DNA from: a virus
Length of the DNA: 14,831 bases
Strand: one strand, 5' to 3'
Virus genome (UHGV): UHGV-0322133
Both the position numbers and the translations under genes were made by a program. Of this stretch, positions 1-7,198 are shown piece after piece (position 1 is the first letter of the stretch; each line of letters opens with the position of its first letter). The notes beneath the pieces are model-generated. The model worked only from the letters and a program-made list of their open reading frames with translations. It was not told where the DNA came from and did not search any database.

Positions 1-898
<898 letters not shown>

Positions 899-902
<4 letters not shown>

Positions 903-1075
903 TTCCTCGCACGATGTCTTAGCCACCGGATATCCCACAGGTGAGCCGTGTAGTTGAAGGTTTTTACGTCAGATTCTTTTGGGATTGGCTTGCGTTTGTT
1001 TCTGGAGCGTTTCGTTGGAAGGTATTTGCAGTTTTCACAGATTATGTCGGTGATACTTCGTCGCTGTCGTCTCAT
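899..1075 (-). CDS. ninE: NinE-family small protein (58 aa, below the ORF-track cutoff)
   Basis: My own translation is [58 protein letters not shown]. Its ATG overlaps the ninB stop (ATGA), and its stop overlaps the methyltransferase ATG. The sequence matches my memory of lambda/P22 NinE. Confidence 0.7.
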
Positions 1076-1482
1076 TCGTATCTCCTGTCGGTAAATCTGA
1101 CACCCTGACCAATAGCCCAGGCTGTTGTGTACTCGATCAGACTTGCCATACGCTTCACGCTCATCTGTGCGCTACTCTCCCGAATGTTGACGAATTCGCC
1201 TTCAAGGCCGCGCAAAACATCAGCTTCCTGTTTTGTTGCCACTGCATGACCGCTGATCAACAAAACCTTCCATTGTTCCGGTTTTAACCATTTGCCGCAC
1301 CATTGAACCTGACGTGCGATATCCGCCAGCATCGCGTGAAATTTTGCGTTCTGGTCAAGGTTGCGCTTGTAGTCAGTAATGCGGATCGTGACTGGCTTGT
1401 CTTTATCGAGAGGAGTTGCGAGGATGGCGTTGATTGCGGCTTGCTGTTGTTGCTTAGTTCGGAGGAATATTGTTTGCTTCAC
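1072..1482 (-). CDS. ninB: NinB/Orf-family recombination mediator
   Basis: A 136-aa ORF with a GTG start preceded by AAGGAG. The segment [34 protein letters not shown] parallels lambda NinB (RSLDQNRKLWACLGDVSRQVEWHGRWLDAESWK). Confidence 0.85.
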
Positions 1483-1493
1483 TGAACACTCCT

Positions 1494-1679
1494 TTATTTT
1501 TTATGCCTGTAACCCCATTCTTCCAGCAACCTTGCGGCGTACCACCCAAGAAACAAAGGAAAGAACATTACAATGAGATATTCCCCGCCACGTTCAATGT
1601 TCGAAATTGACCAGATTACGATGTAACCAGTGCAGAATAGGAATATTACAAACCCCAAAAAGCTACTTCGTCGATTCAT
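1494..1679 (-). CDS. Small predicted two-TM membrane protein (61 aa)
   Basis: The internal ATG at 1679 is preceded by AAGGAG and lies directly after the upstream stop. The translation is MNRRSSFLGFVIFLFCTGYIVIWSISNIERGGEYLIVMFFPLFLGWYAARLLEEWGYRHKK, with two hydrophobic stretches. Confidence 0.55.
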   Translation of the reverse strand: MNRRSSFLGFVIFLFCTGYIVIWSISNIERGGEYLIVMFFPLFLGWYAARLLEEWGYRHKK

Positions 1680-1681
1680 GC

Positions 1682-1951
1682 TCACTCCTTCACTTTGACT
1701 CCAGCAGCGCGAATCAGTCCTTCGCATTCACTAATTGCGTCGTTATAACCAAATGTGACCCCATCCTCGAAATCGGTAGAAAATGCCTCACGCTCTCTTT
1801 TTCCAGGACACTCAATCTCGATAGCTGCTCGCGATGCCTGCCATGCCTCCCATGCAATCTCGACCTTGATGTGCATAATCTTCATCACGTCACTTGAAAC
1901 GTGATATTTGTTTTTAAACCATTCTTCAAACTGCTTTCTTGATTCGTCCAT
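1682..1951 (-). CDS. Hypothetical protein (89 aa)
   Basis: A track ORF that is tightly packed between its neighbours and co-oriented with the PR operon. I recognise no motif in it. Confidence 0.6.
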   Translation of the reverse strand: MDESRKQFEEWFKNKYHVSSDVMKIMHIKVEIAWEAWQASRAAIEIECPGKREREAFSTDFEDGVTFGYNDAISECEGLIRAAGVKVKE

Positions 1952-1968
1952 CGATACTTACCCTCAGT

Positions 1969-2175
1969 TCAACTCACAAAACGCCACGCCATTTTTGCTA
2001 CGACAACAGGCATAACACCGATAATCACCCAGACAAATGCAGCGCCAAACAACGTATACCATGGGTCTTTGCCGTCATTCACAAGACGAATGTAGCTATG
2101 CAGAACAATAAAAAACGTCAGAAGAATCCATCCAACGCCAACGCATTTGAATGCGACGAGCATAAACTCAGCCAC
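1969..2175 (-). CDS. Small predicted membrane protein (68 aa; GTG start, alternative ATG at 2163)
   Basis: It has two hydrophobic segments (VGVGWILLTFFIVL and LFGAAFVWVIIGVMPVVV). A GAGAG sequence lies 6 nt upstream of the GTG. Confidence 0.55.
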   Translation of the reverse strand: MAEFMLVAFKCVGVGWILLTFFIVLHSYIRLVNDGKDPWYTLFGAAFVWVIIGVMPVVVAKMAWRFVS

Positions 2176-2190
2176 GATTTACTCTCTCCC

Positions 2191-2222
2191 AAATAAAAAG
2201 GCCTGCGATTACCAGCAGGCCT
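2191..2222 (-). terminator. Rho-independent terminator-like hairpin after the helicase gene (tR2-like position)
   Basis: An 8-bp GC-rich stem (aggcctgc at 2199-2206 pairing with gcaggcct at 2215-2222) is followed on the minus strand by TTTTATTT. The same bases could instead encode a 27-aa peptide (see findings). Confidence 0.5.
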
Positions 2223-2250
2223 GTTATTAGCTCAGTGATGTAGATGGTCA

Positions 2251-3687
2251 TCAGAATCCTCCTTTCTTCTTGGACTGCGGTTCCTCGCGTTCACGGCGGC
2301 GCATTTCAGCAGACTGTTGGTCTGTATCATAAATAGCGCCATTTGCCTGAATGCAATACACCGTGCCGGTATTGCCATGACGATTGAGACGAAGGATTAG
2401 TTCGGTTTCACCAGGTGGAACACTGTCATCAAAAGCACCTTCACGATGGATCCCCACCCAATAATCGCAATCCTGTTCAATCTGCCCTGTATCTCGCGAG
2501 TCACTTGGTAATGGGCGCTTATTGGTTCGGCTTTCCAGTGCGCGGTTAAGCTGCGTCAGAAGCACAACAACGCAATCAAGCTCTTTGGCAAGGTTCTTCA
2601 GTCCTTTGGTGATCATGCCGTAAGCAAGGTCGTTGCGATCGGCCTTCTCAGCGGTCATTAGTGTCAGGTAATCGACCAGAATCATGCCAACACATCCTTT
2701 TTCTCGCTTGATTCGACGACTTTCGCTGACGATTTGAGCCAGAGATAATCCCGGCGTGTCGTCGATGTAAAGCAGGTCGATTTCACTCAAGCGATTGGCT
2801 GTTTCGATCGCCCTGTTGAAGTCACCATCGTAATCACCCTGATAGCCGTCATCAGCGTCATTTGTCGCCGGAAGGTAAAAAATATTCGGGTTAACACCTG
2901 ACTTCTGTCCTACCAGTTTTTCCAGTATCTGGTCACCGGGCATTTCAAGGCTGAACATCAGAGCGGGCTTTTTCTCATGCACTGCGCAGTTGATTGCCAT
3001 CTGGCTGTATAGCGTCGTTTTCCCCATCTTAGGGCGAGCGCCAATGACAAACAGAGAGCCTTTCACCAGACCTTTCGGTGACAGCATCCTGTCCAGCGAT
3101 GGGATCCCTGTGCTCATTCCCCGTTGTTCGCCTGATGGGTCAAATCGCTTCTCAAGGTCGCTAACCCAGTCTTCCATGACCTCACCAAATGAACGAAGGC
3201 CGCGACGCGATCCGGTTTTTGCATGGTCTGTCAGTTGCGTGAAAATCGACTGAATAGCTTCGTACTTCTGCGTTGCAGTCATTCCGTTGCGGGAATAGAG
3301 CAATTCCGTCGCTTCAGTCATGCGGTTGATGGCGTAGCGTTCCATTGCGGTTTCACGAACCTGCATTGCATAGGCAACGATGTTTGCGGCGCTTGGCGTG
3401 TTCTTTGCGATCTCAGCGATATAAGCAAAACCGCCAACAGACGCCGTTAACGATTTACGCTCCAATTCATCGAAAAGCGTCAGGCCATCTACTGGCTTTT
3501 GCTCCCGGTGCATTCTGGTTATTTCTTCGAAAAGGATTTTGTGTGGCCGGCTGTAAAATGAGTCAGGCTTCAGCATCGCCAGAACTTTCTGGACGCGCTC
3601 ACTGCTGTCATCATCCAGAAGCAATCCACCAATCACCGCCTGCTCTGCCTCGATGCTATGGGGCGGCGCATAAAAATTATCGGTCAT
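2251..3687 (-). CDS. DnaB-family replicative helicase (P22 gp12-type)
   Basis: The N-terminus PPHSIEAEQAVIGGLLLD is typical of DnaB. Walker A is GARPKMGKT, Walker B is ILVDYLTLM, and there is a LTQLNR motif. The likely start is ATG 3687, which overlaps the end of the initiator gene. The track start at 3702 is a GTG. Confidence 0.9.
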   Translation of the reverse strand: MTDNFYAPPHSIEAEQAVIGGLLLDDDSSERVQKVLAMLKPDSFYSRPHKILFEEITRMHREQKPVDGLTLFDELERKSLTASVGGFAYIAEIAKNTPSAANIVAYAMQVRETAMERYAINRMTEATELLYSRNGMTATQKYEAIQSIFTQLTDHAKTGSRRGLRSFGEVMEDWVSDLEKRFDPSGEQRGMSTGIPSLDRMLSPKGLVKGSLFVIGARPKMGKTTLYSQMAINCAVHEKKPALMFSLEMPGDQILEKLVGQKSGVNPNIFYLPATNDADDGYQGDYDGDFNRAIETANRLSEIDLLYIDDTPGLSLAQIVSESRRIKREKGCVGMILVDYLTLMTAEKADRNDLAYGMITKGLKNLAKELDCVVVLLTQLNRALESRTNKRPLPSDSRDTGQIEQDCDYWVGIHREGAFDDSVPPGETELILRLNRHGNTGTVYCIQANGAIYDTDQQSAEMRRREREEPQSKKKGGF

Positions 3688-4567
3688 CGTGTTCACCCTC
3701 ACGAACTTTCAGGTAGGTATTATCGTTAAGCAGGAAATCAAATCCCTTTTTGTGCCAGACAGTTCCGCGTTGATGGTTTGGGCGCTCTTCGAACATCCAT
3801 CGACAATTTTCGCCTACGTAGCTCAAATAATTTCTCCAGTCCTGCATCGAGAACCCATGCCCGTCAAGCTGGCGGGTTATCACTCCGGCTTTGCGCCAGA
3901 ACGTTCGGATCTGGTTTTTACGCTTGTCATTCAGTGCGCGGATTCTTGGAGCTTCAGGAAGGATTTCGTGGTAAGCATCGACAACATCCTGACAGCTAAC
4001 GGAAGGTTTTTTCTTGTCAGACTTTTTGTCTGCTGTGGCACTCTCTAATACGTCAGTATTAGAGATATTATTTATATTATTGTTTATGGACAACTGTTGG
4101 ACAACCGCTGGACAATCTCCGCTGAGAGCCGTGCCATTACTGGTGTTTGCGTTGGACAACCGTTGGACAACCGTTGGACAATTTTTTGACTGAAAATCGT
4201 CATATTTAACGATTGTAAACAGGCTAAATTTCTTCCCCATCGCGCAAATATTAAGCATCCCTTTCGACTCAAAAGTCCGTAATAAGCTCCGAACTTTGTT
4301 GTCGGGGATGAATGTTTCTCTGACCAGCGACGGGCGTCCAGTTATCATCTGACCGCGATCAACAGTTATCGGACCGATATCCGTATTGACGACAGTAGAT
4401 TCGTGATTAGCCTTGAGGATTAAGTGAAGCCAAAGATGTACTGCCTGAGAGTCCTTATAGAGCCTGCTGTCCATAAACTGGCGGTGTATAGAGACATACC
4501 CCATACTGGATGCCTCCTGATGTTGTACAGGGTTATGCCTGTAATCAGCTAACTTAACGACGCCCAT
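3677..4567 (-). CDS. Replication initiator (lambda O / P22 gp18 functional type) containing the origin
   Basis: A 296-aa ORF whose ATG is preceded by AGGAG. It sits between the cII-type gene and the helicase. The iteron array lies inside the ORF and is translated as the repeated VVQRLSN / VVQQLS peptide, followed by an Asn/Ile-rich AT-rich linker. Confidence 0.8.
   Translation of the reverse strand: MGVVKLADYRHNPVQHQEASSMGYVSIHRQFMDSRLYKDSQAVHLWLHLILKANHESTVVNTDIGPITVDRGQMITGRPSLVRETFIPDNKVRSLLRTFESKGMLNICAMGKKFSLFTIVKYDDFQSKNCPTVVQRLSNANTSNGTALSGDCPAVVQQLSINNNINNISNTDVLESATADKKSDKKKPSVSCQDVVDAYHEILPEAPRIRALNDKRKNQIRTFWRKAGVITRQLDGHGFSMQDWRNYLSYVGENCRWMFEERPNHQRGTVWHKKGFDFLLNDNTYLKVREGEHDDR
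4045..4086. other. AT-rich putative DNA-unwinding element next to the iterons
   Basis: The sequence taatacgtcagtattagagatattatttatattattgtttat lies immediately downstream of the iterons in the direction of the gene. This is the same order as in the lambda origin. Confidence 0.5.
4087..4181. repeat. Origin iterons: six TGGACAA cores in two triplets
   Basis: The cores are at 4087, 4098 and 4109, then at 4153, 4164 and 4175. Spacing within each triplet is exactly 11 bp, and the triplets are 44 bp apart (4 x 11), so all six lie on one helical face. Confidence 0.8.
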
Positions 4568-4724: not shown

Positions 4725-4792
4725 TGTGGATTGATCCAGTCTTTCTACATCAGGCCTCGAAGAATTCGCCGTTCTTCGGGGCTTTTTCTTTT
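4725..4792 (+). ncRNA. oop: oop-like antisense RNA overlapping the 3' end of the cII-type gene
   Basis: On the plus strand there is a candidate promoter (TGGTAT at 4690-4695, 17-nt spacer, CATAAT at 4713-4718). A strong terminator follows: stem 4754-4764 pairing with 4772-4782 and containing one G-U pair, then CTTTTTCTTTT. The position, orientation and ~68-nt length match lambda oop. The 5' part (gattgatccagt) resembles lambda oop (GTTGATAGATCCAGT). Confidence 0.5.
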
Positions 4793-5028
4793 GTCAGCAT
4801 TCTGGCTACTTTCTTAGCCAGTTCCGCCAACTCCTCGTCTTCAACACCCCATTCAAGAACAGCCAGAAGCATTCCCATTTTGGGGATGAAGCTATCTTTC
4901 CATCGCGAAATTTGCGATTCATTAATCCCTAACGCGTCGGCAACCTTTCGCTGACCACGTACAGCAATTCGATTCAGGATGTTGCTTGTAATTGCATTCG
5001 CTTTCTTGCGAGTACTTGTAAGTTGCAT
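4750..5028 (-). CDS. cII: CII / P22 C1-type lysogeny-establishment activator (92 aa)
   Basis: The sequence from the internal ATG at 5028 is MQLTSTRKKANAITSNILNRIAVRGQRKVADALGINESQISRWKDSFIPKMGMLLAVLEWGV... It shares the lambda CII core (VDKSQISRWKRDWIPKFSMLLAVLEWGV). The upstream extension in the track ORF lacks an RBS. Confidence 0.85.
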   Translation of the reverse strand: MQLTSTRKKANAITSNILNRIAVRGQRKVADALGINESQISRWKDSFIPKMGMLLAVLEWGVEDEELAELAKKVARMLTKEKAPKNGEFFEA

Positions 5029-5038
5029 ATGTAAGTAT
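5006..5038 (+). promoter_or_regulatory. PRE-like CII-dependent promoter (TTGC-N6-TTGT box plus -10)
   Basis: The box TTGCgagtacTTGT lies at 5006-5019. After 13 nt comes AAGTAT at 5033-5038, within catatgtaagtatttcc, which I recall as identical to the lambda PRE -10 region. The promoter points toward cI and is antisense to cro. Confidence 0.55.
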
Positions 5039-5107
5039 TTCCTTAGATAACAATTGATTGAATGTATGCAAATAAATGCATACACCATAGGTGTGGTTTA
5101 ATTTGAT

Positions 5108-5147: not shown

Positions 5148-6500
<1,353 letters not shown>

Positions 6501-6693: not shown

Positions 6694-6865
6694 AGCATTC
6701 AAAGCAGAAGGCTTTGGGGTGTGGTGAAGGGTTCATGGATGGGAATATGTCGCACGTAAAGCGGCGAGGCCTGCGGAACTATTGCCGAATTGAAGTCGGC
6801 CGAAGCAGGTCGAAATGGGTCTCCCACCTACCACACCACCAAAGCTAACTGACAGGAGAATCAAG

Positions 6866-7198
6866 ATGGATGCACAAACACGACGCCGCGAACGTCGCGC
6901 AGAGAAACAGGCTCAATGGAAAGCAGCAAATCCCCTGTTGGTTGGGGTAAGCGCAAAACCAGTTAACCGCCCTATTCTCTCGCTGAATCGCAAACCGAAA
7001 TCACGAGTAGAAAGCGCACTGAATCCGATAGACCTTACAGTACTGGCTGAATACCACGAACAGATTGAAAGCAACCTGCAACGTATTGAGCGCAAGAATC
7101 AGCGCACATGGTACAGCAAGCCACGCAGTGAAATGGGTGTGACTTGTTCAGGCCGCCAGAAACAACGCGGAAAATCAATTCCAGCTTATTACGATTGA
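6866..7198 (+). CDS. N: Lambda-type N antiterminator (110 aa)
   Basis: The N-terminus MDAQTRRRERRAEKQAQWKAANPLLVGVSAKPVNRPILSLNRKPKSRVESALNPIDLTVLAEYH... has the arginine-rich motif of lambda N. The C-terminal ~25 aa diverge from lambda. The SD is AGGAGA. The 17-codon upstream extension in the track ORF is not supported. Confidence 0.92.
   Translation: MDAQTRRRERRAEKQAQWKAANPLLVGVSAKPVNRPILSLNRKPKSRVESALNPIDLTVLAEYHEQIESNLQRIERKNQRTWYSKPRSEMGVTCSGRQKQRGKSIPAYYD

Follow-up and report, generated by a model that had tools for sequence, protein, structure and literature searches.

The ninA reading frame and a lambda-type tR2 terminator occupy the same bases at the start of the nin region in a lambdoid prophage

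Introduction

The genome of the virus UHGV-0322133 raises the question of how a run of bases is to be read when it looks at once like a gene and like a terminator. At the end of a replicative helicase gene, on the minus strand, lies an open reading frame (ORF) of only 27 codons, the centre of which coincides with a GC-rich hairpin followed by a run of T residues. The original prediction, made from the letters of this DNA, regarded the two as competing readings, one leading to a small membrane peptide and the other to a terminator resembling tR2 of phage lambda. We have followed up this prediction on the whole stretch of 14,831 nucleotides (nt), hereafter the window, to whose first base all positions refer. 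The ORF of 27 codons is the known gene ninA and the hairpin a lambda-type tR2 nested in it; their dual reading is real, already known and annotated in phage records.

tR2 is one of the best-studied intrinsic terminators, and a strong one; it stands where the replication genes of the rightward early operon end, and lambdoid phages overcome it through N. The Pfam and PHROG profile matches of its ORFs mark the window as the early region of a lambdoid prophage, and positions 2168–2265 on the minus strand are the start of the nin region in its rightward early operon. The elements in question are the following.

2168..2251, minus strand: ninA, 27 codons, encoding MTIYITELITGLLVIAGLFIWERVNRG (phrog_5907; annotated as ninA in HK620, P22 and Sf6; coding signature in codons 2–10)
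2258..2265, minus strand: Shine–Dalgarno (SD) sequence AAAGGAGG, 6 nt 5′ of the ninA ATG, within the last helicase codons
2199..2222, minus strand: tR2 hairpin AGGCCTGC-TGGTAATC-GCAGGCCT, 8-bp stem and 8-nt loop (pattern scan; identity with lambda)
2190..2198, minus strand: tR2 T-run TTTTTATTT, directly 3′ of the hairpin, also encoding part of NinA L-F-I

Identity of the hairpin and of the reading frame

In the pattern scan six of the eight stem pairs are G–C, and the RNA folds with −15.7 kcal/mol (z = −2.7), a value equalled by only 1 of 200 shuffles. From 2222 to 2190, hairpin and T-run are identical base for base to lambda tR2 (NC_001416, between ren and ninB), and positions 2225–2192 of the window are the tR2 oligonucleotide given in the supplement of a reporter study (PMC4824070). 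The order of genes on the minus strand, namely CII, an O-like initiator, a DnaB helicase, the hairpin and NinB, places the hairpin where a lambda-type tR2 is expected. Besides the 8-bp stem, the 8-nt loop and the identical T-run, the window thus shares with lambda the position after the replication genes and also contains an N-like gene. It differs from lambda in its upstream neighbour, which is a DnaB-type helicase of the HK022/HK620 type, whereas that of lambda is ren; in one base just 3′ of the T-run (TGGGAGAG in the window, TGGGGGAG in lambda); and in having three cargo genes before ninB, which in lambda follows directly. There, the ninA block ATGACCATCTACATTACTGAGCTAATAACAGGCCTGCTGGTAATCGCAGGCCTTTTTATTTGGGGGAGAG lies between ren and ninB, its ATG overlapping the ren stop and its TGA overlapping the ninB ATG.

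The identity of the reading frame is equally clear. The product matches phrog_5907 with an E value of 1.3e-17, residues 1–26 falling on positions 1–26 of the 27 in the profile, and 24 of its first 25 residues are identical to those of HK620 NinA. The helicase stop (TGA, 2253–2251) and the ninA start (ATG, 2251–2249) have one A in common (TGATG), and the SD sequence forms a duplex of −11.6 kcal/mol with the 3′ end of 16S rRNA. At the other end, the ninA TGA lies inside the first codons of orf68, the next ORF (GTGGCTGA). The hairpin takes up codons 10–18 and the T-run codons 18–21. The window copy resembles the other members of the family (lambda, P22, HK620, Sf6 gene 45, 933W orf4; phrog_5907) at both ends, its start being fused with the stop of the preceding gene and its own stop overlapping the start of the following one, and in the embedded terminator. 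It differs from them in its tail, ERVNRG, which is set by the junction with orf68 (GRGKS in lambda), and in residue 22, which is E in the window and G in most copies. All positions given in the original prediction proved correct on the minus strand, from the helicase stop, the ATG at 2251, the SD sequence with its 6-nt spacing and the 27-codon ORF at 2168–2251 to the three ORFs that follow (orf68, orf89 and orf61, so called after their lengths in amino acids).

Several phage records describe the same bases in both ways. That of HK620 has ‘ninA’ with ‘terminator tR2’ annotated inside it, and that of P22 lists ninA together with a terminator ‘similar to phage lambda’. In the Sf6 record the bases appear as gene 45 (‘similar to phage 21 NinA’), as tR2 and as ‘bsq6; boundary sequence’, while the 933W record has a ninA homologue (orf4) beside a terminator and epsilon34 likewise names ninA. 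The 70-nt block made up of ninA and tR2 is present in 421 phage records, and 2021 of 5426 complete Escherichia coli genomes match some part of window positions 1400–2400, which contain the block; the overlap between ORF and hairpin is therefore not a chance coincidence. The prediction that one run of bases is both an ORF and a tR2-like terminator is borne out by the identity with lambda and by the annotations in HK620, P22 and Sf6. The two readings do not compete, however: they coexist, being annotated together in these three phages, and they have been tested in the reporter study (PMC4824070).

A weak second terminator-like site was noted within orf68 (2114–2139, minus strand), where a 9-bp stem with three G–C pairs is followed by TTTTATTGTT. 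It was treated as probably due to chance, since the scan returned 4 sites as compared with 3.0 in shuffles and only three of its pairs are G–C. No Rfam family was matched anywhere in the window.

Coding constraint in the 5′ half of ninA

It could be argued that the block is nothing other than a terminator and a recombination ‘boundary sequence’, and that ninA is an incidental frame, not meaningfully translated and without function. The label in the Sf6 record speaks for this, as does the joining of the same 70 nt to at least nine upstream and at least nine downstream contexts. Variants of ninA with an ATA start or a frameshift exist, the gene is not called by the Prokaryotic Genome Annotation Pipeline (PGAP), and lambda can do without the nin region (PMC3349717; PMC8022706). 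Moreover, in HK022 and several Shiga toxin (Stx) phages an HNH endonuclease gene lies within ninA and splits it, whereas the hairpin and T-run are kept directly past the HNH stop.

The comparison of homologous loci argues otherwise. About 150 loci were gathered from IMG/VR via two anchors (the 5′ part of ninA and the hairpin), and a further 142 were ascertained via the downstream genes of 68 and 61 amino acids (aa). Nine unrelated upstream gene ends adjoin the ninA ATG, including two helicase types, ren, a primase-like gene and two Symbiopectobacterium contexts, and in all nine of these independent contexts an SD sequence stands at the right distance, with a duplex energy of −5.9 kcal/mol or stronger (binomial p = 1.6e-8; in the background, 13.6% of positions reach −4 kcal/mol). 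Downstream, the ninA stop lies on or next to the following start in at least nine distinct junction types, which is nearly every type seen (ATGA, GTGA, GTGGCTGA, ATGGTTAA and TAAATG among them). Among the canonical copies anchored on the hairpin, codons 2–10 show eight synonymous versus six conservative non-synonymous change types (p = 0.02 for an expected synonymous share of 0.28), an excess confined to the ninA frame (p = 0.21 and 0.97 in the other two).

A diverged ninA, encoding MTAYLTECIVGLLAMAALLVWVGK..., was found by a genome scan in prophages of Symbiopectobacterium. It stands between a DnaB-like helicase (30–54% identical to that of the window) and NinB (46–48% identical), and the order helicase–ninA–ninB is thus kept despite a flanking protein identity of only 30–54%. 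Between these copies and the canonical ones, synonymous divergence (pS) in codons 2–10 is about 1.1, that is, saturated, and non-synonymous divergence (pN) is 0.36, giving pN/pS values of 0.28–0.32 as compared with 0.5–1.05 in the other frames; the motif M-T-x-Y-[IL]-T-E-x-I persists despite a nucleotide divergence of about 45%. A viral scan for the 5′ end of the Symbiopectobacterium-type ninA returned no matches, and tblastn of the corresponding peptide against phages recovered canonical copies only. Taken with the activity of the ninA initiation site in the reporter study (PMC4824070), the SD sequences, the stops placed at the next start, the synonymous excess and the conserved motif render it quite improbable that ninA is an incidental frame.

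Structural constraint in the hairpin half

The second half of the frame behaves differently. In codons 11–21, the comparison of Symbiopectobacterium with canonical copies yields a pS of 0.11 and a pN of 0.17–0.21, so that pN/pS exceeds 1 and no coding signature is seen; the freezing of synonymous sites is limited to this half (codons 11–21 versus 2–10, Fisher p = 0.0014). Frozen synonymous sites in codons 11–21 therefore imply that constraint acts there at the level of nucleotides. Across 32 distinct variants, 98% of the stem cells pair, as against 28–60% when the 3′ partner is slid, G–U wobbles occur at three stem pairs, and the covariation score lies above those of all 500 shuffles. Pair 33/50 has changed from C–G to G–C in two of the three Symbiopectobacterium variants of the alignment, one side of this double change being synonymous (GGC to GGG) and the other replacing Gly by Ala. 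At this position Gally-type phages have a hairpin and T-run of another sequence (−12.6 kcal/mol), and the frame is still open; a related locus (L083), on our reading of the sequences, differs from the Gally type by a stem change from T–A to C–G and by a 1-nt deletion that shifts the frame.

On the strength of these alignments, codons 1–10 of ninA appear to evolve like protein-coding sequence and codons 11–21 like structured RNA. The comparison of homologous phages had been proposed as a way of deciding between the readings, synonymous drift favouring the gene and compensatory stem changes the terminator; it came out positive for both.

This division bears directly on the suggestion that NinA is a functional single-pass membrane peptide, such as a toxin, an exclusion factor or a modulator of lysis or membrane potential, to which the terminator would be secondary. 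In Kyte–Doolittle windows, the hydropathy scan from which all transmembrane calls in this work were made, the product has one hydrophobic segment, the 17-residue stretch ITELITGLLVIAGLFIW (mean 2.08), after which comes a polar or basic tail. Hydrophobicity is retained in the Symbiopectobacterium (2.17) and Gally-type (1.62) variants, and the constraint on codons 2–10 acts at the amino-acid level. The hydrophobic core itself, however, is encoded by the codons with frozen synonymous sites and pN/pS above 1, which is the mark of nucleotide rather than residue constraint, and variants with L to Q (in several contexts), T to K or, through an inverted loop, the residues LRLPA do occur. The C-terminal tail differs with every junction, and the dispensability of the nin region likewise speaks against a functional peptide. 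Nor does ninA, or any of orf68, orf89 and orf61, reach a curated cut-off in Pfam, NCBIfam or PADLOC, that is, for any toxin, holin or defence family.

Above all, the stem codons (GGC CTG CTG ... GCA GGC) and the T-run (CTT TTT ATT) prescribe G, L, A, F and I in the ninA frame whatever the peptide does. The helix-like centre of NinA is thus largely dictated by the terminator sequence and, for that reason, should not count as evidence of a membrane peptide. The ‘clean transmembrane helix’ of the original prediction turns out to be largely a by-product of the terminator, in view of the frozen synonymous sites and the variants just listed, and the toxin, exclusion or holin-like role considered along with it found nothing in its support. 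The membrane-peptide idea is accordingly a weak one, and we hold it unlikely that such a peptide is what the locus is for.

The HNH insertions lie just 5′ of the hairpin and were seen in HK022 (L004, 750–1500), in SH2026Stx1 (L009) and in loci L102, L133, L134, L140, L182 and L272. The inserted gene looks like a mobile endonuclease targeting the highly conserved ninA–tR2 block. In the split gene the 5′ half of ninA acquires a new hydrophobic ending, giving the 34-aa product HK022_56. This was considered as a membrane peptide made without a terminator and rejected, being a product of the HNH insertion with the hairpin retained past the HNH stop. In another locus (L178, IMG/VR contig 2778261637_000005), the 8-nt loop TGGTAATC is replaced by GATTACCT, which is nearly its reverse complement; the stem is intact (−16.3 kcal/mol) and the peptide now reads LRLPA. 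Such a loop is as expected from a flip between the inverted stem arms and could have arisen in that way, an assembly artefact being the alternative. Metagenomic stems with a base other than C at the variable position were also considered; all 57 matches were unrelated chance occurrences, with neither a T-run nor the 5′ part of ninA.

Termination within a probably translated frame

How a strong terminator may operate inside a translated frame can be gathered from the reporter study of Li et al. (2016; PMC4824070). In vivo, tR2 had an efficiency of about 0.9 when 30 bp or more lay between it and the upstream stop, of about 0.8 at 18 bp from the stop with the natural upstream sequence, and of almost nil at a few bp, and it was partly repressed late in a coding region. 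Silencing of the ninA ribosome-binding site (RBS) or AUG restored the reporter output, the authors judging the site ‘not weak’ (section 12), and altered termination at tR2 by only about 10%. Their conclusion was that ribosomes do not repress a terminator lying in the first 100 bp of an ORF (PMC4824070). In the window, 28 nt separate the helicase stop from the tR2 stem. The further element that has to be considered here is the following.

6815..7198, plus strand: N-like antitermination protein gene (phrog_271 ‘anti-termination protein N-like’, E = 6e-27)

The product of this gene would be expected to allow the polymerase to read through tR2.

With its terminator 30 nt past the AUG of a short ORF, the ninA locus has a geometry like that of the leader-peptide attenuators of trp and pyrBI, in which a short ORF likewise overlaps an intrinsic terminator. 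By analogy, the position of the ribosome on ninA might govern the tR2 hairpin and thereby tune read-through into the nin genes, and the nearly complete repression of tR2 by a stop a few bp upstream, as well as its partial repression late in a coding region (PMC4824070), would agree with this. Unlike those attenuators, however, the window has no alternative antiterminator hairpin, since both the minimum free energy and the centroid folds of positions 2160–2275 (116 nt) show the terminator stem only (z = −0.62), and ninA contains no run of regulatory codons. The effect of about 10% that followed ninA silencing (PMC4824070) is small for a mechanism of this kind. Read-through in lambdoid phages is instead expected from N, through which tR2 is overcome and of which the window has a likely counterpart. 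Control by attenuation therefore seems very unlikely.

The explanation that we favour, and that is very probably correct, is that the window carries a ninA–tR2 module in which lambda tR2 lies within ninA; in this module termination would be uncoupled from translation, N would bring about read-through and ninA would bridge ribosomes to the next gene. A ribosome finishing the helicase would stop 28 nt before the stem and would have to re-initiate, thus lagging behind the polymerase and allowing the hairpin to form. Unmodified polymerase would then terminate at tR2, as it did in about 90% of cases in the reporter study, whereas polymerase modified by the N-like protein (6815–7198) would read through. 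On the read-through transcripts, translation of ninA would carry ribosomes over the terminator and into the next gene, and this bridge would keep the chain of overlapping stops and starts of the nin genes unbroken. The hydrophobic centre of NinA would, under these circumstances, follow largely from the stem and the T-run.

The chain of overlapping stops and starts in the nin region goes back to Kroger and Hobom (1982), as cited in PMC4824070, and its ATGA motifs are described in PMC8022706. The window resembles it in having TGATG at the helicase/ninA junction and GTGGCTGA at the ninA/orf68 junction, although neither overlap is a canonical ATGA.

Several observations weigh against the ninA–tR2 module as we picture it. 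About six of 68 distinct ninA regions are damaged (one ATA start, three frameshifts and two HNH insertions), and NinB, with about four damaged copies in 57, has a similar rate per locus yet is five-fold longer than ninA. Non-conservative variants of the peptide occur, as described above. Compensatory change, when counted column by column, amounts to one pair in one lineage, plus one Gally-type pair. RefSeq, annotated by PGAP, is without ninA, and the role of ninA as a translational bridge is one that we infer.

Optional genes between tR2 and ninB

Polymerases that pass tR2 would enter three small genes before reaching ninB.

1969..2175, minus strand: orf68, small membrane protein with two hydrophobic segments (GTG start preceded by GGGAGAGAG; phrog_1165)
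1682..1951, minus strand: orf89, acidic soluble protein (phrog_343; related to Sf6 gp48 and to ‘phiTE_015 family’ proteins)
1494..1679, minus strand: orf61, small membrane protein with two hydrophobic segments (ATG at 1679 preceded by AAGGAG)

The genes are closely packed between the hairpin and NinB (1072–1482), each with its own SD sequence. Every preceding gene contains the SD sequence of the next, and the orf89 stop is 2 nt upstream of the orf61 ATG. The hydropathy scan, with two, none and two hydrophobic segments in orf68, orf89 and orf61, agrees with the predicted arrangement of two small membrane proteins with a soluble one between them in the same operon.

orf68 is a full-length member of phrog_1165 (E = 1.6e-38), and PGAP names it ‘hypothetical protein’; a homologue from Salmonella has ATG where the window has GTG. 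Against HK022_58 (about 36% nucleotide divergence, no indels), the ratio of non-synonymous to synonymous substitution rates (omega) is 0.27–0.32 in frame and 0.8–1.2 in the other frames. For orf61, comparison with a 70%-identical homologue gives an omega of 0.19 (dS 0.99, dN 0.18), as against 0.74 and 2.45 in the other frames. A 77-aa extension of orf61 was rejected, the diverged homologue starting at the same ATG behind its own SD sequence. No PHROG family was matched by orf61, which falls into only four clusters in a collection of 5.8 billion proteins and is left unannotated in RefSeq.

Among close relatives (>90% identity, loci L155–L296), orf68 has 12 synonymous versus 31 non-synonymous changes and orf61 has 5 versus 11. 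Neither shows a synonymous excess, codon positions being hit equally, whereas NinB, the coding control from these loci, has a very strong one (77 synonymous versus 41 non-synonymous changes, p = 5e-21). The suspicion that the two ORFs are non-coding, to which these counts gave rise, was overturned by the purifying selection seen against the diverged homologues; the missing signal among close relatives may reflect relaxed selection or recombination of alleles. On the evidence of these substitution patterns, orf68 and orf61 are to be regarded as real genes for predicted two-helix membrane proteins.

orf89 matches phrog_343 over its full length (E = 6.4e-30) and is 48% identical to a RefSeq ‘phiTE_015 family protein’. 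It has 393 homologues, and precomputed PF26207 assignments stand on all matches listed; a local Pfam scan of the window protein itself nevertheless returned nothing. The family is mosaic within the gene: in the alignment (A2), the invariant segments MDESRKQFEE, WQASRAAIEIE and IRAAGVKVKE are split by interchangeable cassettes of varying length. An AlphaFold (AF2) model is mostly helical, with a predicted local distance difference test (pLDDT) score of 76.7, and Foldseek found no match for it in the PDB at E ≤ 0.001.

Families related to these genes occupy the same slot after tR2 elsewhere. orf68 and orf89 are full-length members, by hidden Markov model, of the families of HK022 gp58 and Stx2-86 orf69/70 (phrog_1165) and of Sf6 gp48 and phiTE_015-like proteins (phrog_343), whereas orf61, with its four protein clusters, belongs to no PHROG family. 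From locus to locus, the number of these cargo genes between tR2 and ninB varies from none to three, in many combinations. As a separate observation, the slot (window 1483–2198; loci L012–L296) is empty in lambda and P22 and holds the 68-aa gene alone in HK620, whose record leaves that gene unannotated. orf68, orf89 and orf61 would thus represent optional cargo that is expressed only after read-through of tR2.

Gene context

The remaining genes on which the assignment of the locus depends are given below.

2251..3702, minus strand: DnaB-type replicative helicase (from the ORF list; Pfam DnaB, E = 3e-31; DnaB_C, E = 3e-60)
1072..1482, minus strand: ninB, the first conserved nin gene past the variable cargo slot (Pfam NinB, E = 4e-55)
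4750–5088, minus strand: CII
3677–4567, minus strand: O-like initiator
5467–6099, plus strand: cI-like repressor

Genes for RecT and Ead/Ea22 are found on the plus strand of the window. On the 3′ side of NinB (395–938, minus strand), the ORF at 489–938 matches only the first half of phrog_363 (phage DNA methyltransferase) and is overlapped by an ORF at 395–805 with a transposase-like end (phrog_1157, phrog_31967), which suggests a truncated or interrupted methyltransferase gene.

Discussion

As a discovery, the nesting of tR2 in ninA carries little weight, since tR2 is well studied and ninA is a named but functionless gene of lambda and P22. The modest new point is that the N-terminal half of NinA would be protein-like and the hairpin half RNA-like. 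As far as we could find, such a split of constraint within a single 21-codon stretch of ninA has not been described before. It is tempting to go further and to regard ninA as a conserved dual-coded element, in which a translated mini-ORF lets a strong terminator sit inside a translationally coupled gene chain, stop and restart of the ribosome provides the uncoupling, translation across the hairpin maintains coupling to the later genes on read-through transcripts, and the motif M-T-x-Y-[IL]-T-E-x-I serves a separate purpose, be it in the peptide or in initiation. This extended proposal is tentative, and on balance we would sooner doubt it than rely on it. If it were true, terminators inside operons could follow a general design rule of which the dual-coded ninA is an instance.

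Both ninA and orf61 are passed over by gene callers and RefSeq, which makes for apparent gaps in automated annotation. The stretch from tR2 to ninB is a hot spot of small accessory genes, and orf68 and orf61 are reasonable candidates for a phenotype screen.

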